DNA from: Gammaproteobacteria bacterium
GTDB taxonomy: Bacteria; Pseudomonadota; Gammaproteobacteria; UBA6429; Thiohalophilaceae
Assembly (NCBI GenBank): GCA_023135195.1
Contig: JAGLTQ010000129.1
Location: 1 to 26,350 of the forward strand
DNA: 26,350 bases
Direction of reading: 5' to 3'
Made by a program: the position numbers and the translations under genes. The notes under the pieces are model-generated. The model did not search any database. It was not told where the DNA came from and saw nothing but the letters and a program-made list of their open reading frames with translations. Shown piece by piece: positions 1,750-23,062 of the stretch. How positions within the stretch are numbered: the first letter of the stretch is position 1; every line of letters begins with the position of its first letter.

Positions 1750-3441
1750 TTAGCGTTTTTTTGAATTAGCTTTTAAGCCTTTTATTGTTTCTAACAAGTT
1801 CGATGCGCCTAAAACAGCGGCAGCACCTGCATAACCTGTACCGGTTCCATTAACTAATACGGTAGGCACTTTAACAATGGCCGGGTTTTTAATTGCTGCA
1901 TCTAACGTTTTCTCTAATGCTTGTAATTGCATTGCACGTTCTTTGCCTAAAACATTTGCTTGCGCTTGTTGCCCTTTAGCAATTTCAATAAGTTTGAGTT
2001 TTTCACCCTCACCTTCTAATTGTAATTGACGTTTACGATGTTTCGCAGCTTGTTTCGCGATTTCTGCTTTAACGAGTTGACCTTGTTGATCAGCAGTCGC
2101 ACGTTCACGTTCAACAGCAATCCGTTGTTTTTGTGCTTGTTGTTCTTTTATATAGGTTGTTTTCAATTGTGCTGCAAGTTGTTCTCGCAAAGTTGCGACA
2201 AGTAACTCAGGTGGAATAGCAGGTTCACCCATACGTACTTCCTGAATACTGACCCCTGCTTTTAAACCTTCTGGCACAATTGCTTTTTCGAGTAACGTCA
2301 CAATCTCTTCACGTTTCAGCATGAAATCCAGTGCTTTACGTTCTTTTACTCCACCAATAGTGCGTAAGATGTCGCGGATAGCGGGAGTAATAATATTATC
2401 TTCAACTTTTTGCAGGTTACCAATCGTAGCAACGACGATAGGTGCATTTTTAGGATGCACTTGAACAACAACACGCATTTCAACAGGAACGGTCCAGCCC
2501 TCGACGCGAACTAAAATCGCTGATGAGGCAGCATTTTTTGGTACAGGAAGCTTTTCTGCTGTTTCGGTTTGACTAATTTTCCCATTATCATCAACACGTA
2601 AATCAATTTTACGCCTGGTATAACCGCCTTTATAAACCCAGGTTCTTAAACGAGTAGGAATAATTGTTGGGATGTAAGCACGATTATTTAAGTAATATCG
2701 TCCAGGTGGTAATGGCTCATCCCAAACACCGATACAACCTTTAGGTACGATAGGTGTTGCAACATGTGCGCCTTCTTTGCCATTTTTTAAGGATGTCGTA
2801 GGGCAACTTTTATTTGTTTGCACATTTGAGCGAATGACCGCAACGTGTCCTGTGGGTACATCGAGTGCTTTTGCAGCTTTGACATCAAATAGATAACGAT
2901 TAATACGATATTTACCAGGACGTAATACGGTTAACTGTGGACCTTTTTGACCTTTGCCTTCAGTCAGGAAGTGGGTGGCATTAAGCATCTGTTGAAATTT
3001 TTCTTCTTGCCATTCATCGGCGATGAATTGTCCCTGACGCAAGGGCAAGCCATCTTTTGCATTAAGAATACCGTATTGCCCTTCTGCAATTTCAACAACG
3101 GGAACATCGGTATTAACTTCATTAAGAATACGAACAAAAGGCATAAAGTGAAAGCCCGGGCCAATAATTTCTGATTGCGGACCTTTTTCACCGTCAGGAG
3201 CGATAATTTTTCCAGGTGGTAAGTTTGCTGCGAGGTATATACGTTCGAGATGACCAACTTCATTAGCACCGATAATGACAAATGAACGAGAACCTAAAAG
3301 AAATAAACCGATACCAACTAAAGCGAATTGAAGAATGCGGGTATAGACTTGTGATTTTTGTTCATCACCTTTATTAATAGGATTTTTGAGCAAGTAACCT
3401 GCCCACGCTAACATCGCAATTGAAATCAAACCTAAAAACAT
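1750..3441 (-). CDS. yqiK: Flotillin-like SPFH/band-7 family membrane protein (YqiK-like).
   Basis: 563 aa. It has an N-terminal TM segment, an SPFH core, and a C-terminal Ala/Glu/Gln-rich coiled-coil tail (EQQAQKQRIAVERERATADQQGQLVKAEIAKQAAKHRKRQLQLEGEGEKLKLIEIAKGQQAQ). These are typical of bacterial flotillins. The RBS GGGG sits seven nt upstream of the ATG. Confidence 0.8.
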   Translation of the reverse strand: MFLGLISIAMLAWAGYLLKNPINKGDEQKSQVYTRILQFALVGIGLFLLGSRSFVIIGANEVGHLERIYLAANLPPGKIIAPDGEKGPQSEIIGPGFHFMPFVRILNEVNTDVPVVEIAEGQYGILNAKDGLPLRQGQFIADEWQEEKFQQMLNATHFLTEGKGQKGPQLTVLRPGKYRINRYLFDVKAAKALDVPTGHVAVIRSNVQTNKSCPTTSLKNGKEGAHVATPIVPKGCIGVWDEPLPPGRYYLNNRAYIPTIIPTRLRTWVYKGGYTRRKIDLRVDDNGKISQTETAEKLPVPKNAASSAILVRVEGWTVPVEMRVVVQVHPKNAPIVVATIGNLQKVEDNIITPAIRDILRTIGGVKERKALDFMLKREEIVTLLEKAIVPEGLKAGVSIQEVRMGEPAIPPELLVATLREQLAAQLKTTYIKEQQAQKQRIAVERERATADQQGQLVKAEIAKQAAKHRKRQLQLEGEGEKLKLIEIAKGQQAQANVLGKERAMQLQALEKTLDAAIKNPAIVKVPTVLVNGTGTGYAGAAAVLGASNLLETIKGLKANSKKR

Positions 3442-3657
3442 AACAAACCCCTTTATTCTTCCTTAAATTAATGTACGTATGAGGTTATGAAGTTAGGAGA
3501 GATATTGCAAGCAGGGAGCGGGTTTCATTGGTATGAATAGTGATTTTATTTATCCATAAACAGGCATGATTAAGATTAGTTCCTAATTATGATAAGTTAG
3601 CAGGCTGGATGTGATATAAAAAATATCATATATTTAAAATAAAATTTTCTACAGGTA

Positions 3658-5202
3658 ATGAAATTGAGTGCATGGCAAGTTTTAGGTATCGCGCAAACGA
3701 CTAATAAAAAGCTTATTAAACGCGCATATGCGAAATTATTAAAACTTCATAAGCCTGAACAGGATCCTGAAGGCTATCAACGTCTTCGTAACGCCTATGA
3801 TAAAGCTATCGTTTATTGTAAAAGGGAGAATGTAAATTCTATTGAAGATTTTTACAATGATGTTATTGCTTTAGACCTTCCGGTTCAGCTCTCTCATCGT
3901 TCGGAGTTTCAATACAGTGAACCAGACATAGAAAACATGGGATCTGTAGTGGATGATTCCCCTGATGCTCGTATTTTCAATGATATTAATAATGCTGTTC
4001 AGAATGTTTTTTATATTGAGTCCCCAATAGAATCACTTAAATCATTTAAGACTTTGTTGAAGTCAGATTTATTACTCAATATTAAAAACAGGAAGTTGTT
4101 TTCACTATTATCAATAGAAAAAGGAATTAATTGGGATGGTGACTTTGAATATCCCTATGTGCTTTTAAATGATATGGCCACTGAGTTGGCCTGGTTTGAT
4201 ATAAATGCCAAGTATGAATCAGTCAGCGATGAAGATATTCATTATTTACAGTTACGAATAAAAGCAGGTTTAGAGTACCAGGCTTTGGTAAAGCTATCTA
4301 AACAGCGCGCATTTTTCAGCAAAGATAGTTCAGACATTCGAGCGGCTCGTTTAATTTTAGGTGAGTATCATCCTGGGTATTTTAATTTTCAGGCTTTTAT
4401 TTATTTTAATCACAGTTATTATGCGACTAAAAATATCATTGATAAATTTACTCAGCAGTATTCTTTAGAGCTTTGCCCACAAATAAATACGCCATCATTT
4501 CGATGGTGGCAAAAACGATTAAACAGACATGCCTACTCAATTATTGATGTCATTATTGCTACTTCTATTGTAGTAGTTTTAATAATGTTGAATGACATGT
4601 CTATTATTAGTATTTACAGTCTTTCCCTTGACCATTCTATAGTTACTGGTTTTAGCATCTTATTAATGGTTATTCTATCTATTGCTGTTTGGTGGATGAT
4701 TAACGTCTTGCTAAAAGGGTTTCGTTTTACAGCATCAAAAGTAAAAGAATATTATAAAGTTTTAAAAGATTATATTAGTGAATATTGGAACAGCATTAAA
4801 CATCGACCTTTTGTTTATTATGGTGTAACCAGCATTTATATATTTGTTTTTTTATTAGCTGGCTATTTAAAGGATTCAAATTATGATACTGGTTTATTAT
4901 TTTTAGGCAGTATATTGCTTTTTATAATGCTTGAAGCAAAAATTATATTGTTATGCGTCGCTTATCTTCCTTACGTTCTTGTGAAATCGGAAATAGAATT
5001 TATTGAATTACCATTAACATTAAATTACATATTTGTTTTTGTTGCATTATTAAGTATTGTTAGTTTTGAAAAGTTACAGGAAATTGAGCTTGCTGAATGG
5101 GCAACAAGGAGTACGCTTGGCGTGATTCTTAGCATGAGCATTGTTACCAGCTTAGTCAGTTTTGTCCTGCTTAAAAGTTTAAATTATATTATCTTGTTTT
5201 AA
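3658..5202 (+). CDS. djlC: Membrane-anchored J-domain co-chaperone, DjlC-like, and probable partner of HscC.
   Basis: The N-terminal ~65 aa form a J domain ([29 protein letters not shown] contains the HPD-type tripeptide as HKP..DPE). The C-terminal ~200 aa are strongly hydrophobic with several predicted TM helices. The gene sits immediately upstream of an HscC-type Hsp70, mirroring the E. coli ybeV(djlC)-hscC arrangement. Confidence 0.7.
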
Positions 5203-5216
5203 AAAGTGAATATTAT

Positions 5217-6917
5217 ATGTCTATGATAGGTATTGATTTAGGTACAACAAATAGCCTGGTAACGTATTGGGATGGGAAACAGGCAAGCTTGATTCCCAAT
5301 GGGCTTAATAAAGTTATGACGCCTTCTATTGTTGGTATAGATGACAGTGGTGCGATTATTGTTGGTGAGGTTGCCAGGCAACGATTACAAACTCATTCCG
5401 ATAAAACCCTTGCAAATTTTAAACGTTACATGGGAAGCAATAAAACGTTTTCTCTGGGTAAAAATAAATTTCGTCCTGAAGAGTTATCCGCATTGGTATT
5501 GAAAAGTCTCAAGGCTGATGCAGAGGCTTTTTTAAATGAAGAGGTAACGGATGCAGTCATCAGTGTGCCTGCTTATTTTAGTGATGCGCAACGTAAGGCG
5601 ACTCAGGCCGCAGGACAGTTAGCAGGACTTAATGTTAAACGCTTAATTAATGAACCGACCGCCGCGGCTATAGCCTATGGAATGCATGAGAAAAAGGATG
5701 ATATTACTTTTTTAGTCTTCGATATTGGTGGCGGCACATTTGATGTTTCAATATTAGAACTCTTTGATGGTGTCATGCAGGTCAATGCTTCATCGGGTGA
5801 TAACCGCTTAGGTGGAGAAGATTTTGTTGATGTGCTGATAAGAGCATTTGCAGAACATCATAATATGAAGCTTGATAAATTAAAGGGACAGCAACTGGCA
5901 AACTTACGTTTATCCGCAGAGAACTGTAAGCAAGCATTGACCTCTGAAATGCATTCAAGTATGAGCATACGAGTAAAAAAACAGAACTATGATATGTCTG
6001 TGAGTCGGGAACAGTTCAATGATTTTAGTGCTGATCTATTACAACGCTTAAGACAGCCTCTTGAGCGTGCACTGAATGATGCAGATCTGCATGGCGATGA
6101 ATTGGATAGCATCATATTAGTGGGTGGGGCATCACGCATGCCGATCATTCGCTCGCTTGCATCAAAGATGCTTGGGAAAATTCCTTCAGCACATATCAAC
6201 CCTGATGAGATTGTTGCTTTAGGTACAGCCATTCAGGTTGGTCTAATACAAAATGATGAGACATTAAAAGAGATTGTACTAACGGATGTATCGCCTTATA
6301 CCTTAGGTATAGATATACATAATGAGAATGATCAGGGTGAAAGTGGTTTATTGTTTCATCCTATTATCGAACGTAATTCTCCTGTACCAATTAGTCGAAG
6401 TGATTTGTTATATAACGCAAGTGATAACCAATCCAAAATTGAAATGGGTATTTATCAAGGTGAAGCACTCTATGTAAGGGAGAATATAAAACTGGGAACA
6501 CTTAAATTAAAAATACCCAGAGGACGAGCAGGATCTGAAAGCATAGATGTTCGTTTCACCTACGATATTAATGGCCTGTTGGAAGTAGAAGTGATCGTAA
6601 CTTCAACGGGTAAAAAAGAACGTGTCGTGATAGAAGGCAACCCCGGTCTTTTAACACAAAAAGAAATTGAACAGCGCTTAAAATCTTTACAGGGATTGAA
6701 AATTCACCCCCGCGAAAAACTTGAAAACTCAGTATTAATGGCTCGGGGAGAAAGATTATATGAAAATGCACTGGGAGAAAAACGTGCGTATATAGCAGAG
6801 TTATTACAACTATTTGAGAAAACATTGAACAAACAAGATTTGGCTGAAATTAAATCTCTGGTTAATGAAATTACTGAAATCTTTGATCAGTTAGAGCAAG
6901 ATTCGCCGCTGCACTAA
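5217..6917 (+). CDS. hscC: Hsp70-family chaperone, HscC subfamily.
   Basis: 566 aa. It carries the Hsp70 N-terminal ATPase signature [10 protein letters not shown], plus [26 protein letters not shown] and [10 protein letters not shown] motifs. The length and shortened C-terminal lid are HscC-like (E. coli HscC is 556 aa). It follows a J-domain membrane protein by 15 nt. Confidence 0.85.
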
Positions 6918-6931
6918 ATACAGTAATGGCT

Positions 6932-9133
6932 TTACATCAAATCCATCGGGTCTATATCAATAGACCAACGAACTTTTTTTGCAGTCTTGTCGATTTCAAT
7001 TTGTGGAATGCTTGAGGCAAAGAGTGTTTGTAGTTGTTTACGGTTGTTAGCCTGAACGAGTAACTGTGCACGATAACGTCCGGCACGACGTTCCATTAAA
7101 GCGGGGAACGGACCAATTAATAAAACATCATTTTGTTTATTTTGTTCTAACAACAAACGCGCTTGTTCTAAAAATACCATCGGACTTTGTTGATCAACCG
7201 CTTCTGCACGAAGTAATGCTAGATGAGTAAAGGGCGGCAACTCTGTTTGCTGGCGTTCTTCGATTAAGGCTTTTGCAAAACCGGGATAGTCATGTTTAAG
7301 CAACGGTTTAAATAAGGGATGATCTGCATGATGAGTTTGAATAAGTACTTCACCCTCTTTTTCTTCACGTCCAGCACGTCCGGCGACTTGTAAAATCAAT
7401 TGTCCCATACGTTCTGAAGCACGAAAGTCTGAACTGTATAAACCATGATCCGCATTTAACATGCCGACCAATGTTACGTTAGGAAAGTGATGCCCTTTGG
7501 CCAACATTTGTGTGCCAATTAAAATTTGTCGCTTACCATTATTGATTTCATTTAGCAGTTTTTCCATTGAACCTTTACGGCGCGTGCTATCGCGATCAAT
7601 ACGGATCACCTGATACTGAGGAAAGAGTTCATTGAGTGCATGCTCAATGCGTTCGGTACCAAAACCCATTTGTAATAGATCATCGCACTTACATTTTGGA
7701 CATGCAGAAGGTTTATATTGTTCGGTACCACAGTGGTGACAACGTAGTTGTGAATTACTTTGATGCAAAGTCATGTGGGCATCGCAACGTGGACATAGAG
7801 CATGCCAGCCACACTCATGACACATGAGGACAGGAGCATAACCACGACGATTTAAAAATAATAAAACCTGTGAATCATTCTCAAGATGTTCTTTCATTTT
7901 ATGCAGCAGTTGTGCTGAAACACCGTGTTCCATTTTTTGACTGCGTACATCGAGCAAAGAGATGGTGGGTGGCTTTGCATTACCGGCACGTTCAGGTAAT
8001 AACAAGGTTTCATAACGACCTTGCAAAGCATTATATAAGGTTTCTAATGAAGGTGTGGCTGAGCCTAATATAATAGGGATATTTAAATCGCGTGCGCGTT
8101 TAACCGCAAGGTCACGTGCTGAATAGCGAAAGCCATCTTGCTGTTTAAAGGAGAGATCATGCTCTTCATCAATGATAATGATACCGGGCCGTAATAGGGG
8201 GCTAAATACAGCAGAACGTGTTCCTATAATAACGTCGGCTGAACCGGCCTGGGTGTGCAACCAGGCCTGTAAACGTTCTTCATCATTTAAACCGGAATGC
8301 ATGATGGCAATGCGGCCATCAAGACGTTGTAAAAACCGATCCATCAATTGTGGGGTGAGCCCAATTTCAGGAACCAAAACGAGCGCTTGTTTTCCCTGCT
8401 TGAGAACATCTGCAATGACCTGAAGGTAAACTTCAGTTTTACCACTGCCGGTTACCCCTTCAAGTACATAGGCATGAAAGCCGTCATCTTTTTGTTCAAT
8501 AACACGATTAATAGCGTGTCGCTGATCATGATTAAGTTTGTGGGCAGAAGTGATGGTTTGTGCAATTGGTAAGGCGTTTTCTTCAAATGATTCTACTAAG
8601 CCTTTTTCTTGCAGCCGTTTCATTACCGGACGCCAGCCAACATGGTGTTCACTGAGTTGAGAATCTAATAAGCCTGAAGTGGATTGCTTGAGATCACCCA
8701 TTAGTGCAACTTGCTTGGCAGCTCTTTTTAAGCTCAGCAGGTCGAGCTGCTGGCCCTCAGGCGTGAGCTGCCAGCGCCTGATACCTTTTATATGAGTAGA
8801 AGCACCTTGACGTAGCTTTACCGGTAAGGCATTTTGCATGACCTCTCCGATAGGGTAGTGATAATACATGCTGCACCAGCGAAGTAACTGTAAAAGCTCA
8901 GTGTCAAAAACGGGTTTTTCATCCAGAATTTCAATGGCGTGCTTTAATTTTTGCACAGGCACATTGGTTTCATGCACAACGTCCAATAAAATACCGATTA
9001 GCGTTTGGCGTCCAAAGGGCACCTTTATGCGCACCCCTGCTGGAGGGTGTTTTGCCTGAAAATTTGCCGGCACAAGGTAGTCAAAATAACGTCGAAGCGG
9101 GGTTGGAATGGCGATGCGTAAATAGTTGTTCAT
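6932..9133 (-). CDS. priA: Primosomal protein N' (PriA replication-restart helicase).
   Basis: 733 aa. Walker A GVTGSGKT and a DEEH box (IIIDEEHD) are present. The Cys-rich zinc-finger insert CHECGWHALCPRCDAHMTLHQSNSQLRCHHCGTEQYKPSACPKC is characteristic of PriA. Confidence 0.9.
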   Translation of the reverse strand: MNNYLRIAIPTPLRRYFDYLVPANFQAKHPPAGVRIKVPFGRQTLIGILLDVVHETNVPVQKLKHAIEILDEKPVFDTELLQLLRWCSMYYHYPIGEVMQNALPVKLRQGASTHIKGIRRWQLTPEGQQLDLLSLKRAAKQVALMGDLKQSTSGLLDSQLSEHHVGWRPVMKRLQEKGLVESFEENALPIAQTITSAHKLNHDQRHAINRVIEQKDDGFHAYVLEGVTGSGKTEVYLQVIADVLKQGKQALVLVPEIGLTPQLMDRFLQRLDGRIAIMHSGLNDEERLQAWLHTQAGSADVIIGTRSAVFSPLLRPGIIIIDEEHDLSFKQQDGFRYSARDLAVKRARDLNIPIILGSATPSLETLYNALQGRYETLLLPERAGNAKPPTISLLDVRSQKMEHGVSAQLLHKMKEHLENDSQVLLFLNRRGYAPVLMCHECGWHALCPRCDAHMTLHQSNSQLRCHHCGTEQYKPSACPKCKCDDLLQMGFGTERIEHALNELFPQYQVIRIDRDSTRRKGSMEKLLNEINNGKRQILIGTQMLAKGHHFPNVTLVGMLNADHGLYSSDFRASERMGQLILQVAGRAGREEKEGEVLIQTHHADHPLFKPLLKHDYPGFAKALIEERQQTELPPFTHLALLRAEAVDQQSPMVFLEQARLLLEQNKQNDVLLIGPFPALMERRAGRYRAQLLVQANNRKQLQTLFASSIPQIEIDKTAKKVRWSIDIDPMDLM

Positions 9134-9672: not shown

Positions 9673-10572
9673 GTGCCGGATTGGTCAAAAATTGAACAAG
9701 ATATATGTTCATCAATAGACAAGCCTTTTCAGCTTAAAAAGCATTCTGTGGTGCTTGGTGGTGATATCAATCAGGCCTTCCAGCTAAGTGGAAAAATTGA
9801 TAATGAAAATATGGATATCAGTTTTTTTATAAAATTTAATCAAAAAGACCTTCTTGATATGTTTACCGCGGAAGCAGCAGGACTTCAGGAAATTGAGCGG
9901 GCACAAGCTATTCATGTACCGAAGGTAATTTGTACTGGCACAGATGAAAATCAGAGCTATTTGGTTCTGGAAAATTTGCTGTTTACGGGAGCTTCTTCTA
10001 ACTCTGCAGAAAAGCTGGGGCATAAGTTAGCTGTCATGCATAAACAGACTGCTCAGCAGTATGGTTGGTCGAAAAATAATACCATTGGTTCTACTAAACA
10101 AATTAATACGCAAGCTGAAAGCTGGATTGATTTTTGGAGAGAGTTTCGTCTTGGTTACCAGGTTAACCTTGCGGATAAAAAAGGTGCTGCACAATCATTA
10201 ATTATTAAAACTAATAAATTATTAAATAGTCTGGATGCCTTTTTTGTAAGCTACTCTCCTGTACCTTCGTTACTTCATGGTGATTTATGGTCAGGTAATT
10301 ATGCGTATCTAAAAAATGGAGAGCCGGTTATTTTTGATCCCGCTGTTTATTATGGTGATCGAGAGGCTGATATTGCGATGACGGAATTGTTTGGAGGGTT
10401 TCCTGGTGAATTTTATACCGCATATAATGCAACCTGGCCATTAGACAAAGGTTATCAACAACGTAAAACGTTATATAACCTTTACCATATTTTAAATCAC
10501 TATAATTTGTTTGGTGGTGGCTATGCCATGCAGGCAGAAAATATGACAGATCAATTATTAGCTATGTTATAA
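9673..10572 (+). CDS. Fructosamine/ketosamine-3-kinase family protein (YniA-like).
   Basis: 299 aa. GTG start with GGGAGA five nt upstream. It has the kinase-like motifs HGDLWSGN and DPAVYYGDREADIAM of the fructosamine kinase (PF03881) family. Confidence 0.75.
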   Translation: MPDWSKIEQDICSSIDKPFQLKKHSVVLGGDINQAFQLSGKIDNENMDISFFIKFNQKDLLDMFTAEAAGLQEIERAQAIHVPKVICTGTDENQSYLVLENLLFTGASSNSAEKLGHKLAVMHKQTAQQYGWSKNNTIGSTKQINTQAESWIDFWREFRLGYQVNLADKKGAAQSLIIKTNKLLNSLDAFFVSYSPVPSLLHGDLWSGNYAYLKNGEPVIFDPAVYYGDREADIAMTELFGGFPGEFYTAYNATWPLDKGYQQRKTLYNLYHILNHYNLFGGGYAMQAENMTDQLLAML

Positions 10573-10807
10573 AATTTTTCACTGCTGTCCCGTTAACATA
10601 TTAGTAATTTATAGTACGTCACTGATTTTGTGAAAGATCGGACTGTTCGAAGAAATTGAAGACATGAGATTGCACAAATACATATTCGGTGTAATTCCTT
10701 CTCCCTCCGGGACGACTCCATGGATGGAGGAGATAGGACGAAGTTTGGAACCAGAGTCGAGAAGGTTAGGATGAGGGGGTTAACGGGACAGCAGTGAAAA
10801 CTTTTAT
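10569..10807. repeat. About 224-bp element bounded by 22-bp perfect terminal inverted repeats (ttttcactgctgtcccgttaac at 10576-10597; gttaacgggacagcagtgaaaa at 10779-10800). The repeat extends to 29 bp with one mismatch. Candidate MITE or structured RNA between convergent genes.
   Basis: The inverted repeat was read directly from the sequence. Its core (10640-10780) is visibly GC-richer than the flanks and contains internal stem-forming segments (ccttctccctcc ... ggaggagatagg; palindrome tccatgga). Each terminal arm overlaps the stop codon of one of the two convergent flanking genes. Confidence 0.6.
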
Positions 10808-11745
10808 GCTTCAGCATAAGCCAGTGAGAATGATCCCGGACCAACATTTACCGATGCTGTTGTACTCATAATAGACATTAGTGTTCTTACGTTTTTACTT
10901 TTTGCATAGGTAACAAACTTTCTATAATCAGACCTAGTATAGATATCATTTAAATCACCGGCATAGCTCATAACAACAACATTGATTGACAATTTATTTT
11001 CAATTGCACTTTTTGTTTTTTCAAATAAATTAACCAGACCTTTGTTAAAGCCCATAACTTTATCTACTGGTTCAGTATGCCCTTTGTAACACTGTATTAT
11101 AGGCTTTACATTGAGCATGTTACCCATTTGATAACTTAACCAGCCTACGCTGTCATCACCTTTTTTGCTTGCCCTGTTTTTAAGGTGATATAAATCTTTT
11201 GGTAATAAAAAGGCGCGAACTTTATCTTTTAATGGAACTAGTTTTTCAACAACTTGAGATATATTAAGCTGTTGTGCTTTTAGTAAACGAAGTGCTTCGT
11301 AAACTAATACACCTTGTCCGGTAAACAGGGTGCCACTGTCAAAAACGCGAATTTTAAAGAAAGGAGACAGACCTGCTTTAGTGCGGGCCTCTTTAAATTT
11401 ATGCTGGCTAACAAAAACAGCATCACGAACATTTTTATAAATTTCACTTCGTGCTGAATTAATAGTAATGGCCAATACTTCGTCATATTCAAAAATAAGT
11501 TTTTCTTCCAGAAGTGAAGACATTTCTTTTACAGAAAAGGGTTCTGTTTCTGCATCAAAACTTTTTTTACCCATATCACTTAAATAAAACTGAATCGTTT
11601 TCTCAGGATCACGATTATCAATAAAGTTATTGCCACCTAGTTTGAGTGTAATGGGGAGTATTTGCAGATCCTGTTCTTTAAAAATAGCAGCAGGTAAATC
11701 ACAAGCAGAATCGACAGCAATGCAAGTTCTTTCAGACATATTCAA
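10804..11745 (-). CDS. DegV-family (EDD-domain, fatty-acid-binding) protein.
   Basis: 313 aa. The N-terminus CIAVDSACDLPAAIFKEQDLQILPITLKLGG matches the DegV consensus (..IAxxTDSxxDLP..). The length is typical of the family. Confidence 0.7.
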   Translation of the reverse strand: MNMSERTCIAVDSACDLPAAIFKEQDLQILPITLKLGGNNFIDNRDPEKTIQFYLSDMGKKSFDAETEPFSVKEMSSLLEEKLIFEYDEVLAITINSARSEIYKNVRDAVFVSQHKFKEARTKAGLSPFFKIRVFDSGTLFTGQGVLVYEALRLLKAQQLNISQVVEKLVPLKDKVRAFLLPKDLYHLKNRASKKGDDSVGWLSYQMGNMLNVKPIIQCYKGHTEPVDKVMGFNKGLVNLFEKTKSAIENKLSINVVVMSYAGDLNDIYTRSDYRKFVTYAKSKNVRTLMSIMSTTASVNVGPGSFSLAYAEA

Positions 11746-11923
11746 AGGGCTCCAGTTAACTATTATGAGATAAAATAAGGGGGATAGAGGCTATATACAC
11801 AATATTAACACAGGAATTATTTGCTTTTGAGTTAAAATATCATATTCTAACTTTAGAATTTAGATTATAGTCACTAATTATAAGTAACAATAAGAATAAT
11901 TTATAACTTTAGAGGTTAGTTTG

Positions 11924-12460
11924 ATGTTTGATTTTTTAAAGAAGAAAAATAAGAAAGAAGATGTACAGGATAATAGTGGGTCTCAACAAGTTGCTAACAA
12001 TGTCCATGCTGCTGCTCCGGGAACCCAGATTCGATATAATCCGAATTTAATTAATAAACTAGAAGATGACCATCAAGCATTGTTGAAAATATTTGGTGAA
12101 ATTAATGCGGCGGTGACTGCTGCCAATTACCCTTTAGTTGCTGAAAAGTTGAAAGAATTTAAACAGGGCTTTTTGGATCACATCCTTGTCGAAAATGTGA
12201 GTCTTTATGTATATATGAAGAGTTCTTTTAAAGGCGATGAAGGGAACATTGGTTTGGTGCAAGAGTTTCGCAGTGAAATGGATGAAATTGGTAAAGCCGT
12301 TAGAGCATTTATTCTAAAATATGAAACAATCGGGATTAATCAAGATGTAGCCTCCTCTTTTGCGGAAGAATTAGGTGGTATTGGTGAAGCGCTTGTTGCT
12401 CGTATTCAACGAGAAGAAGGTACGCTTTACCCGTTATACCAACCTGCTTACGGTTCTTGA
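11924..12460 (+). CDS. Hypothetical 178-aa soluble protein. The ORF track starts it three nt earlier, at TTG 11921.
   Basis: Complete ORF. The ATG at 11924 has GAGG eight nt upstream. It has its own AT-rich upstream region divergent from degV and a clean intrinsic terminator downstream. No domain I can name. Confidence 0.6.
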   Translation: MFDFLKKKNKKEDVQDNSGSQQVANNVHAAAPGTQIRYNPNLINKLEDDHQALLKIFGEINAAVTAANYPLVAEKLKEFKQGFLDHILVENVSLYVYMKSSFKGDEGNIGLVQEFRSEMDEIGKAVRAFILKYETIGINQDVASSFAEELGGIGEALVARIQREEGTLYPLYQPAYGS

Positions 12461-12511
12461 GGCTCAGCCCATTAGAAAACTTTCTAATTCAGATTGAGCT
12501 AAATACAAAGC

Positions 12512-12542
12512 AAAGATGCGTTTAAAAGCGCATCTTTTTTTG
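12512..12542. terminator. Bidirectional Rho-independent terminator shared by the convergent genes 11924-12460 (+) and 12545-12721 (-).
   Basis: Stem aaagatgcg (12512-12520) pairs with cgcatcttt (12529-12537). The loop is tttaaaag. It is followed by a TTTTTTTTGTTTT run on the + strand, and flanked by an A-rich tract on the + strand, which gives a U-run for minus-strand transcripts. Confidence 0.8.
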
Positions 12543-12544
12543 TT

Positions 12545-12721
12545 TTATAAGCAGTCGTTATCCTGACAAGCAAGTTCACTGCGAGCAGCATTAACGCGGC
12601 TTAACAGAACTGCATAATTCGCAGCGTCATCCGCAGATTCAAGAGGACCTTCAAGTCCACCAGGCGTCTTTACACACCAGCCATCTCCACAAGGTTGTAT
12701 TAAAGTTGAATCAAAAGTCAT
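12545..12721 (-). CDS. Small 58-aa cysteine-containing protein, absent from the ORF track because it falls below its length cut-off: MTFDSTLIQPCGDGWCVKTPGGLEGPLESADDAANYAVLLSRVNAARSELACQDNDCL.
   Basis: Hand-translated from the minus strand. The ATG is at 12719-12721 with a perfect SD AGGAGG (caggaggtgaaccATG, six-nt spacer). Four Cys sit as two CxxxxC/CxxxxC-like pairs near the N- and C-termini (C11, C16, C52, C57). It ends at the bidirectional terminator and has a 268-bp upstream region of its own. Confidence 0.6.
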   Translation of the reverse strand: MTFDSTLIQPCGDGWCVKTPGGLEGPLESADDAANYAVLLSRVNAARSELACQDNDCL

Positions 12722-12989
12722 GGTTCACCTCCTGTAATAAATTAACGAGCTATATATTCGACTGCCGAAAATACAAATAAGTTCGTTGTTTGTTTCTTCG
12801 TTATTACCAAGCATAGCGTTATAGAAAGTATTTGTGAACCAGTTCACATAATTTTAACAATAGATTTAAATAATCCCACTTAATGATGGGTTTATTCTAT
12901 TATTTATCTTTAATAGCGAATTTTAATAGCACAGAAGAGAAACATATAAAATTATTTAATATTCAGGCTTAAGTGGAGGTGTCTGACCA

Positions 12990-13763
12990 CTAATCCGCCT
13001 CTTTTATAGAGTAAAGTGGGGATAATGCGGTGCGTATGCTGTTAAATAAGCCATTGTTGTGGGATTCTTCCTTAGCAAGAAGTTGTTTCATATGTTCCCG
13101 CTCAGTGGGCATATCATAGCAGGCAGGGCAAGAATCAGGGATCACTGGTAAATCAAATTCTTTCGAAAATTCAGTAGTTTGGCTTTCCCTCACATAGATC
13201 ATAGGGCGGATAATACGTATATCTCCGTCCTGATTAGTGTAATTTGCCTTCATTGTCCTTAATTGCCCACCGCGAAAAGCGGACATTAAAAAACTTTCGG
13301 CCAAATCATCTAAATGTTGTCCAAGAGCAAGCACATTACAGCCTTCGCGCCTCGCAACGGAATACATGATTCCACGTTTCATACGGGAGCAAAAAGAGCA
13401 GAAAGAGTCATTCTTCATTTGCTCTTCGGCTTGCTTTGTAATGTCATGACTTTCATAAAAATACGGAATATTAAGATCAGCGAGATACTGTTTTAGCCTG
13501 GAGGGATCAAAACCTTCGATTTCAGGATCAACCGTGATGGCTGAGATGGAGAAATTTATCGGTGCATGGCGTTGCAGGTGACGCAAAATATGTAATAAAG
13601 AAAGAGAATCTTTACCACCGGACAATCCAAGTAAAACATGATCTCCCTCTTTGATCATTTCAAACTCAGTGACTGCTTTACCAACGGGTTTAATGATAGA
13701 TTTCGGGATTTTTAATATCTCACCACGGTTTAGCGGCTTCTTTATTTGTGACTGCGTATTCAT
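12990..13763 (-). CDS. ttcA: tRNA 2-thiocytidine(32) synthetase TtcA (PP-loop ATPase).
   Basis: PP-loop motif SGGKDS (LGLSGGKDSLSLLHIL) is present. Two CxxC motifs (CSFCSRMKRG and CPACYD) would coordinate the Fe-S cluster. Overall similarity to E. coli TtcA. Confidence 0.85.
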   Translation of the reverse strand: MNTQSQIKKPLNRGEILKIPKSIIKPVGKAVTEFEMIKEGDHVLLGLSGGKDSLSLLHILRHLQRHAPINFSISAITVDPEIEGFDPSRLKQYLADLNIPYFYESHDITKQAEEQMKNDSFCSFCSRMKRGIMYSVARREGCNVLALGQHLDDLAESFLMSAFRGGQLRTMKANYTNQDGDIRIIRPMIYVRESQTTEFSKEFDLPVIPDSCPACYDMPTEREHMKQLLAKEESHNNGLFNSIRTALSPLYSIKEAD

Positions 13764-21940: not shown

Positions 21941-23062
21941 ATGCATAACTTAACCGAAACATTAGCTGAACAACTTAATATCACTAAGACTGAAATAGAG
22001 CGTCGCAAGAAGCTATTAGGATTCACAGAAAGAGATGTGGAACAGTTGGTGTTTTTTAAACCGATGATTGCGAAACATTTAAGTGGAATTATTAAAAACT
22101 TTTATGATTTTATGACTGGCTTTAACGAGGTTTCTTCGATTATCGGCGATGCTGAAACAATGCGGCGTTTATCCAGTGCGATGAATATGTATGTGCTCGA
22201 TTTATTTGATGGGCAGTATGATGAGGATTATGTCAATAAACGATTAAGAATTGGGCTAGTGCATAAGCGTATTGGGGTGCCATCCGAACTTTATTTAGCG
22301 GGTATATATCAACTTCAGTTAAATTTACATAACACGATGGCCATGTATGAATTCGATGAAGAAAAAATTAATGGCGAAACTATTAGTGTTTTTGCAGCAA
22401 AACAATCGATTAATAAACTATTAATGTTTGATATGCAGTTTGTATTAGATACATATTTTTCAAGCTTAATGAAAGAAGTCCAAACCGCAAAAGAAGAACT
22501 CAATGTGTACACTACTTCATTGGAAAAAATAATTGAAGAAAGAACGCATGAACTTGAAGAATCATCAATGCGAGATATGTTATCTGGATTATATAATCAG
22601 CGTGCATTTTTTGAGCAACTAAGAAGAGAGCTTTCTAATGCAGAACGGTATAAAGAATCATTGGTTCTTTGTTATCTTGACTTAAATAATTTTAAAATTA
22701 TTAATGATGATAACGGTCATCAGGCAGGAGATAAGATATTAGCTTTGGTTGGCAAAATTATAACAAATTGTTTGCGGGGATCTGATATAGGTTGCCGTTA
22801 CGGTGGAGATGAATTTGCGATTATTTTACCGCATACAACACTGGATGATATTGATATTTTCACTACACGTTTAATTGAAGATTTTGAAGCTGAAGATATG
22901 CACGGTGTGAGTTTTAGTATGGGAATAGCCAGTGTTGGCCCAGAAGAATTTGTGAATTATGAAGTTTTACTAAAAGCAGCAGATACCGAGATGTATAAGG
23001 CAAAGGAAAAAAATAAAAAAAGTGCTGGATTTTATATTTCAACTATTTACGTTAGAGAATAA
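21941..23062 (+). CDS. Globin-coupled sensor diguanylate cyclase (N-terminal protoglobin/globin-sensor domain plus C-terminal GGDEF domain), DosC-like.
   Basis: The C-terminus has GGDEF (GCRYGGDEFAIILP) and the upstream RAFFEQ/DLNNFKIINDDNGHQAGD I-site region. The N-terminal ~160 aa carry the globin-sensor hallmark RLRIGLVHKRIGVPSELY, a proximal-His-containing segment. Confidence 0.75.
   Translation: MHNLTETLAEQLNITKTEIERRKKLLGFTERDVEQLVFFKPMIAKHLSGIIKNFYDFMTGFNEVSSIIGDAETMRRLSSAMNMYVLDLFDGQYDEDYVNKRLRIGLVHKRIGVPSELYLAGIYQLQLNLHNTMAMYEFDEEKINGETISVFAAKQSINKLLMFDMQFVLDTYFSSLMKEVQTAKEELNVYTTSLEKIIEERTHELEESSMRDMLSGLYNQRAFFEQLRRELSNAERYKESLVLCYLDLNNFKIINDDNGHQAGDKILALVGKIITNCLRGSDIGCRYGGDEFAIILPHTTLDDIDIFTTRLIEDFEAEDMHGVSFSMGIASVGPEEFVNYEVLLKAADTEMYKAKEKNKKSAGFYISTIYVRE

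Follow-up and report, generated by a model that had tools for sequence, protein, structure and literature searches.

A 217-bp element with IS4-family ends, very probably a transposable element of the miniature inverted-repeat type, between two convergent genes of a gammaproteobacterium

The MIC231 elements of the Bacillus cereus group are non-autonomous, carry the ends of IS231, an insertion sequence (IS) of the IS4 family, and are moved in trans by the IS transposase. [quoted passage not shown] Correia elements duplicate TA and are not known to have an IS4-family parent. MITEAba12 of Acinetobacter, 113 bp long with 78% A+T, is mobilised by ISAba12, and its movement has been observed experimentally; it generates 9-bp target duplications and is identical to its parent IS in the terminal repeats alone (PMC6382973). 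Here we describe a 217-bp element that lies between a fructosamine kinase family gene and a convergent DegV family gene in a 26,350-nt stretch of gammaproteobacterial DNA (GenBank assembly GCA_023135195.1, contig JAGLTQ010000129.1, positions 1 to 26,350, forward strand; referred to as the window). The element is very probably a non-autonomous MITE with IS4-family ends, presumably moved in trans by an IS4-family (IS4Sa-like) transposase, and its insertion into the tiny gap between the two genes is a recent jump.

The following observations support the MITE reading. The 18-bp ends of the element are the ends of an IS, the element is flanked by a 9-bp duplication of the target, the same site is empty in relatives, and related copies occupy other sites. 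Four features by which a MITE is recognised are present: a small non-coding body, terminal repeats identical to those of an IS, a target duplication of the length made by that IS, and presence/absence variation together with copies elsewhere. The original prediction, made from the letters of the window, had offered a MITE in a TA-rich site as one possibility and a long-stem bidirectional terminator or structured non-coding RNA module as the other. The former is borne out by the IS4-family ends, the 9-bp duplication in an A/T-rich site, the empty sites in a near-identical strain and the related copies. An origin as terminator or RNA finds no support in any Rfam match, terminator consensus or net covariation.

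Boundaries of the element and its target

The element was noticed because of a 22-bp perfect inverted repeat that seemed beyond chance and extended to 29 bp with one mismatch. Both statements are reproduced by a repeat search of the window, in which the arms 10569-10597 and 10779-10807 (29 nt, one mismatch, 181 nt apart) form the best inverted repeat, followed by a 27-nt pair at 81%. The perfect 22-mer, TTTTCACTGCTGTCCCGTTAAC, occurs only at 10576-10597 on the plus strand and at 10779-10800 on the minus strand and in 0 of 100 shuffles; by our own estimate, the chance of a 22-nt perfect inverted repeat spanning at most 300 nt anywhere in 26 kb is about 5e-7. The arms are longer than the true ends of the element, because a near-palindromic AAAAYTTTT duplication, followed by AT on both sides, prolongs an 18-bp repeat to an apparent 29 nt. 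The terminal repeat proposed at first, 22 bp, is therefore corrected to 18 bp, the other 11 nt of each arm being the 9-bp target duplication plus AT, and the length of the element is corrected from 224 to 217 bp (10580-10796), within the MITE range of about 50-600 bp. The element and its two flanking genes are arranged as follows.

9673-10572, plus strand: fructosamine kinase family gene (Pfam PF03881, E = 9e-107), C-terminus intact
10571-10579, unstranded: left target-site duplication AAAATTTTT, a direct repeat of 10797-10805 at 8/9 positions
10580-10597, plus strand: left terminal inverted repeat CACTGCTGTCCCGTTAAC, 18 bp, the same as both ends of the 1271-1275-bp IS copies
10598-10778, unstranded: non-coding interior, 181 bp, 42.5% GC, without Pfam or Rfam matches
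10658-10668, plus strand: subterminal motif GAAGACATGAG, in which GACATGA begins 81 nt from the left end
10779-10796, minus strand: right terminal inverted repeat, reading GTTAACGGGACAGCAGTG on the plus strand, the perfect reverse complement of 10580-10597
10797-10805, unstranded: right target-site duplication AAAACTTTT, its last two bases within the DegV stop codon
10804-11739, minus strand: DegV family gene, 311 aa (Pfam PF02645, TIGR00762), C-terminus intact

As had been predicted, the arms contain the TAA stops of both flanking genes. The first two bases of the left AAAATTTTT copy complete the kinase stop (10570-10572), and the DegV stop reads TTA on the plus strand (10804-10806). When the element and one copy of the duplication are removed, the reconstructed site reads ...TTA TAA AAY TTT TAT GC..., with a 5-nt spacer between the stops, and the kinase TAA and the DegV TTA overlap the two ends of the 9-bp target. 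The stops of the two genes were thus probably only 5 nt apart prior to the insertion. They now lie inside the arms because the target, which lay between them and overlapped both, was duplicated, so that each gene holds a stop codon of its own and both C-termini are unaltered. The placement of the stop codons is a consequence of the target duplication and no design feature. The length and stop position of the kinase gene are unchanged in comparison with the empty-site alleles described below.

The element itself has no credible coding capacity. A single open reading frame spans it (10593-10847, minus strand, 84 aa, overlapping the end of degV), and a Pfam search of this frame found no match, in agreement with the earlier statement that no transposase lies inside. 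The claim of a GC-richer composition holds in direction, at 44.7% for the element against 37.3% for the window, while the difference is mild, the element falling among the top 6% of 217-nt windows. Self-complementarity of the interior is confirmed: the palindrome TCCATGGA is located at 10717-10724, and a stem CCTTCTCCC.../...GGAGATAGG is predicted.

The insertion sequence group that shares the ends

When the 22-mer was sought as an exact match, each species being represented by one genome, 59 loci were retrieved, the metagenome-assembled genome (MAG) of the window not being among them. Nearly all of the loci belong to uncultured Gammaproteobacteria (Thioalkalispiraceae, Ectothiorhodospiraceae, Sedimenticola, Thiohalobacter and others), with a minority in Nitrosomonas, Flavobacterium and Calditrichia MAGs, and the sequence behind the 22-mer is highly variable from one to the next. 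The 18-nt core CACTGCTGTCCCGTTAAC was then sought in these loci and in the window as inward-facing pairs with up to 3 mismatches. The pairs fall into two size classes: 11 elements of 1271-1442 bp, each with a single open reading frame, which encodes an IS4-family DDE transposase, and 24 elements of 110-371 bp, which include that of the window. The 9-bp flanks are direct repeats at all nine positions in 20 of the 35 elements and at eight of nine in 7 more, among them the window element.

The long class can be illustrated by the copy in locus L019 (3251-4521), which has the same 18-mer ends and a perfect 9-bp duplication and reads TGTTGTTTT, then CACTGCTG...CAGCAGTG, then TGTTGTTTT again. This layout, together with the 9-bp flanking repeats, shows that the true terminal repeat is 18 bp long and that the IS duplicates 9 bp of its target. 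The open reading frame of the copy (3353-4501) matches Pfam DDE_Tnp_1 (PF01609, E = 2.6e-31) and DUF4372. It scores 257.7 bits against the NCBIfam model NF033592, 'IS4 family transposase', and the corresponding protein of L024 scores 268.8 bits, the cutoff being 115. IS4-family elements can be recognised by direct repeats that measure about 8-13 bp, not 4-6 bp, and by a Y-(2)-R-(3)-E-(6)-K signature (PMC2266710). The signature is found in the L019 transposase as YKARWQVELFFKWIK, so that a DDE_Tnp_1 transposase above the family cutoff, the YREK motif and the 9-bp duplications all place the parent group in the IS4 family. Within that family, the IS4Sa subgroup is tabulated with lengths of 1150-1750 bp, ends CA------T and direct repeats of 8-10 bp (PMC2266710, Table 1). 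The full-length IS, with 1271 bp, ends CACTGCTGT and 9-bp repeats, agrees with this row, and the presumed parent fits an IS4Sa-like element, a placement by tabulated features and not by phylogeny. The group with the invariant 18-bp ends seemingly has no name yet.

The short class is mobile within a single genome, as is shown by two 214-bp copies in L052 which lie 1.1 kb apart, have different duplications and are identical over the first 130 nt, the stretch compared. In at least 13 loci a verifiable contig end is no more than about 110 nt away from the 18-mer, as is expected of a repeat. The possibility that unpaired ends with long open reading frames behind them (L008, L009, L016, L031, L047, L048) delimit larger cargo elements was considered and dropped, the translations reading as ordinary host genes similar to PurH, fumarase and CbbX. 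These ends are taken to be solitary or to have lost their partner by decay. The 18-mer has no occurrence in IMG/VR viral contigs, and blastn of the element in distant mode against the PLSDB plasmids gave no match.

By combining this information, it is possible to outline how the element might have arrived. A DDE transposase of this IS group, encoded elsewhere in the genome or by a past resident, would have bound both ends of the element and excised or copied it. The target AAAAYTTTT between the kinase and DegV stops would have been cut with a 9-bp stagger and joined to the element. Repair of the stagger would have duplicated the 9 bp, each gene keeping its own stop and an unchanged protein. 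This mechanism is modelled on IS4-family DDE transposases (PMC2266710) and on bacterial MITEs (PMC6382973).

The left end of the full-length IS has a further feature. In L019 (3262-3355) and in the other full-length copies, a -35/-10-like TTGATA...TACAAT lies between the arms AGGCCTGATTT / AAATCAGGCC of an inverted repeat that overlaps the transposase start codon. Such an arrangement would be predicted to hide the start codon in read-through transcripts.

Empty sites, related copies and other explanations

The DegV protein of the window is identical to a protein, P0001, encoded both on the NCBI MAG contig DAOWIG010000126.1 (L061) and on an ENA contig of a sister sample (L062). The open reading frame taken from its longest (TTG) start has no exact record on look-up; the true start is the ATG two codons later, as in P0001. 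The interior of the element in L061 matches the window at 100%. In L062, the gene after degV begins 18 nt away and the element is missing. Over the 2640 nt that end at 10803, the identity of this contig to the window is 99.8%, and the alignment resumes at 10578 at 93.4%; its intergenic sequence, ATGAGTCGCTAT AAAATTTT, has the target without the element. The same 18-nt spacer, with AAAATTTT and no element, is present in L063/L064 (DegV 93% identical), and a 6-nt spacer, likewise without the element, in L065 (DegV 82% identical). The absence of the element from this site in the near-identical L062 and in these relatives means that the insertion is polymorphic at the level of strains. The original prediction had named a single-copy feature, conserved in position in all relatives, as the outcome that would leave just a large terminator hairpin; the relatives lack the element at this position.

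An ENA scaffold of the same strain (L060) has 100-N gaps at 2652-2751 and 7468-7567, one of which covers the MITE site (window 10382-11252). A repeat or a polymorphic site at which the assembler stalled could account for this gap. It also has to be weighed with the suspicion that the insertion is an artefact, in that a repeat was joined by mistake to this intergenic stretch when the MAG was assembled. For such a misjoin speak the 100 Ns across the region in the same strain, the empty allele in the sister sample, and the circumstance that L061, the sole filled-site sequence compared, is identical to the window and probably comes from the same assembly. A chimeric join, however, would not place direct 9-bp copies of the target precisely at the two ends of the element, nor would it keep both flanking reading frames intact, and the look-up of the DegV protein reports two further contigs with the gene neighbourhood of L061. 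We regard an artefact as very improbable.

The identity to the related contigs differs between the two sides of the site. L062 is 99.8% identical on the DegV side (10803-13442) and 93.4% on the kinase side (10412-10578), while L063 is 88.4% identical on the DegV side and 95.8% on the kinase side. Judging from this mosaic of alignment identities, recombination may have had a breakpoint in the intergenic site or close to it.

The empty sites also bear on the proposal that the stem is a long bidirectional terminator, or a hairpin stabilising the 3' untranslated regions, that evolved in the host and is common to both convergent genes. A strong fold of the whole region is predicted for either strand (-84.2 and -70.6 kcal/mol, z = -5.9 and -6.3), A-runs and T-runs flank the GC-rich part of the stem in the manner of bidirectional terminators, and such effects of MITEs have been held conceivable in a review (PMC10969869). 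The strong folding energy, however, results from the terminal repeat together with the palindromic target duplication. Two further lineages, as well as the strain with 99.8% identity on the DegV side, are without the element at the same site, so that it is no conserved part of the locus. The stem sequence, moreover, is the terminal repeat of an IS family in unrelated genomes. The stem encloses 181 nt, whereas the loop of an intrinsic terminator has 3-8 nt; between the stem and the T-run stand four or five A residues, and a consensus scan of 10300-11100 finds no terminator-like site. A host-evolved terminator is accordingly very improbable. Termination is possible as a secondary effect of the insertion. 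Both mRNAs would read into sequence able to form a 29-bp stem, and this may have an effect on the host that is secondary to the jump; tentatively, the new stem might act as a common 3'-end processing or termination module of the two genes.

The MITE reading is strengthened by copies of the same subfamily at other sites. When JGI metagenomes were scanned for the terminal repeat's end plus 11 interior bases, four contigs were retrieved. In two of these (L068, L070), 134-137 nt match the left part of the window element at 88% identity; the other two (L067, L069) are 86-88% identical and reach the contig end after 104-113 nt. Two other insertion sites are marked by the four contigs and L013, and at one of them the duplication reads TAATATTAT. 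In an alignment of the family that takes in L021, L017/L054 and L010, the usual copy is 234-261 bp long and has two GC-rich hairpin modules. The window copy matches further members of the subfamily at 88% over the left 119 nt of its interior and has one such module (CCTTCTCCC...GAGAAGG) with a copy-specific 48-nt insertion in its loop (about 10712-10759), and the second module is absent.

These copies also bear on another explanation, according to which the region is the gene of a structured non-coding RNA, either a small RNA or a ribozyme-like module, closed by a long terminal helix. The strong predicted fold, the compositionally distinct interior and the reports that some MITEs yield small RNAs, such as the Coxiella QMITEs cited in PMC10969869, would suit such a gene. 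In the five subfamily copies, however, the terminal helix is invariant and the covariation term is +1.24 kcal/mol, which lends no support to a conserved structure, most of the internal pairs are broken in the window copy, and behind the same terminal repeat the interiors cannot be aligned between subfamilies. There is no Rfam match at gathering score in the whole window, and the permissive matches in 10450-10950 (scanned at E up to 10) are at chance level, with E of at least 1.9. The promoter signal is not above chance, and a tRNA/tmRNA scan found none. The probability that the region is an RNA gene is very small.

The MITE interiors behind this terminal repeat contain recurring GC-rich hairpin modules, CCCTCTCCC-NNN-GGGAGAGGG followed by TTGGGGTGAGGGG, and CATTCCGGCGAAGGCCGGAATG. 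They are seen in L010, L016, L017, L021, L054 and L070 and also in L006, L008, L014, L030, L043 and L056.

Several observations weigh against the identification of the element as a MITE of this IS4 group. No transposase of the group is encoded within the 26-kb window, which holds one copy of the element. The target duplication has one mismatch (T/C). A 13-nt indel separates the nearest empty sites from the pre-insertion site as reconstructed: the window lineage is without 13 nt of the L062-type spacer, so that none of the empty alleles is the exact pre-insertion allele. Finally, the interior of the window copy has no significant similarity to the IS interior, and the idea that the element is a simple internal deletion of the IS is unsupported. 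Across the short elements, the matches to the IS interior are weak, 16-36 nt long (E 0.019 to 0.9), three of them being the 13-nt motif described below and nothing else; the sole clear internal-deletion derivative of the IS among them is a 215-bp element in L015. The window MITE could be either an old deletion derivative or a pair of ends assembled around unrelated DNA.

Subterminal motif, neighbouring genes and known systems

Most of the short elements have one feature in common inside the terminal repeats. The heptamer GACATGA, usually within (CC)GAGACATGAA, is found 78-82 nt from one end in 17 of the 24 elements, 15 of the 17 having been aligned, and the interiors cannot otherwise be aligned between subfamilies. 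In the full-length IS, GACATGA stands at 148-152 nt in all 11 copies, where it lies within codons 16-19 of the transposase (P-R-H-E), the synonymous positions of which are nearly invariant. The motif could be a site that acts in cis, or it could be left over from the 5' end of the transposase gene. As a tentative and on the whole unlikely proposal from these sequence comparisons, transposition or its control in this IS4 lineage might need (CC)GAGACATGAA as a second site in cis, subterminal in position, to which for example the transposase or a host factor binds. If this is true, selection for the site would explain why MITEs with unrelated interiors keep the motif at one distance from the end. 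Judged by the orientation of the motif, the left terminal repeat of the window element is IRL-like. The alternative that GACATGA contains the start codon of a small protein inside the element was rejected: a 36-codon frame follows the ATG in the window, but the frames of other copies stop early or differ, and in L021 the frame ends after 4 codons.

With the identification of the element, the annotation of the intergenic 'structure' is settled in favour of mobile DNA, as opposed to a regulatory RNA or terminator that belongs to the locus. The general view of MITEs is unchanged, this being an ordinary kind of mobile DNA. The locus is a textbook-type case in which the duplication of the target permits an element to land between abutting stops and leaves both proteins unchanged. 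It also draws attention to a seemingly unnamed IS4-family group of IS and MITEs in many uncultured, mostly gammaproteobacterial MAGs. The group breaks assemblies and is polymorphic between strains, and its 18-mer can serve as a marker for assembly gaps and strain variation.

Some other features of the window may be recorded. The scores of an Hsp70 paralogue (5217-6917) fall short of the DnaK and HscA cutoffs, and PADLOC gives it a weak match to PDC-M61B. Upstream of it lies a 514-aa open reading frame (3658-5202) without family match, and the surroundings also include a 457-aa orphan open reading frame (330-1703) and, at 1750-3441, the gene for a divergent Band_7 protein of 563 aa. The other gap of scaffold L060 covers window 5239-5667, at the end of the 514-aa frame and the start of the Hsp70-like gene. 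Searches of the neighbouring orphan frames with PADLOC and NCBIfam revealed no link to the element. Colinear imperfect inverted repeats of 17-27 nt, 75-94% complementary (48-99 / 403-463 and 210-236 / 723-749), span the 3' end of the frame at 330-1703 and its downstream sequence. A protoglobin-GGDEF protein, that is, a globin-coupled diguanylate cyclase, is encoded at 21941-23062, and its gene adjoins those for a pentapeptide-repeat protein and a 963-aa metallophosphoesterase-domain protein.

Among the known systems, the Correia and ERIC-type elements have no sequence relation to the window element. The MIC231 elements carry passenger genes, whereas the window element carries none, and the two differ in subgroup and in host phylum. 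Among named IS, ISAbe18 from Acinetobacter plasmids is the closest, with the ends CACTGCTGTCCCA / CATTGCTGTCCCA. The terminal repeat of the window element starts with CACTGCTGTCCC, as do the ends of ISAbe18, and the first 12-13 nt are in common, but ISAbe18 lacks the GTTAAC part of the repeat. Its transposase is about 50% identical in protein sequence to that of the full-length IS with the ends of the window element, which itself, unlike ISAbe18, has no transposase and measures 217 bp. MITEAba12 belongs to another IS lineage and has another terminal-repeat sequence, and the movement of the window element is deduced from presence/absence and from copies at other sites, while that of MITEAba12 was directly observed. 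The two elements are nevertheless alike in being small and non-coding, in having terminal repeats that match those of an IS, a co-occurring one for MITEAba12, in their 9-bp target duplications and in the mobilisation in trans that is proposed for both.

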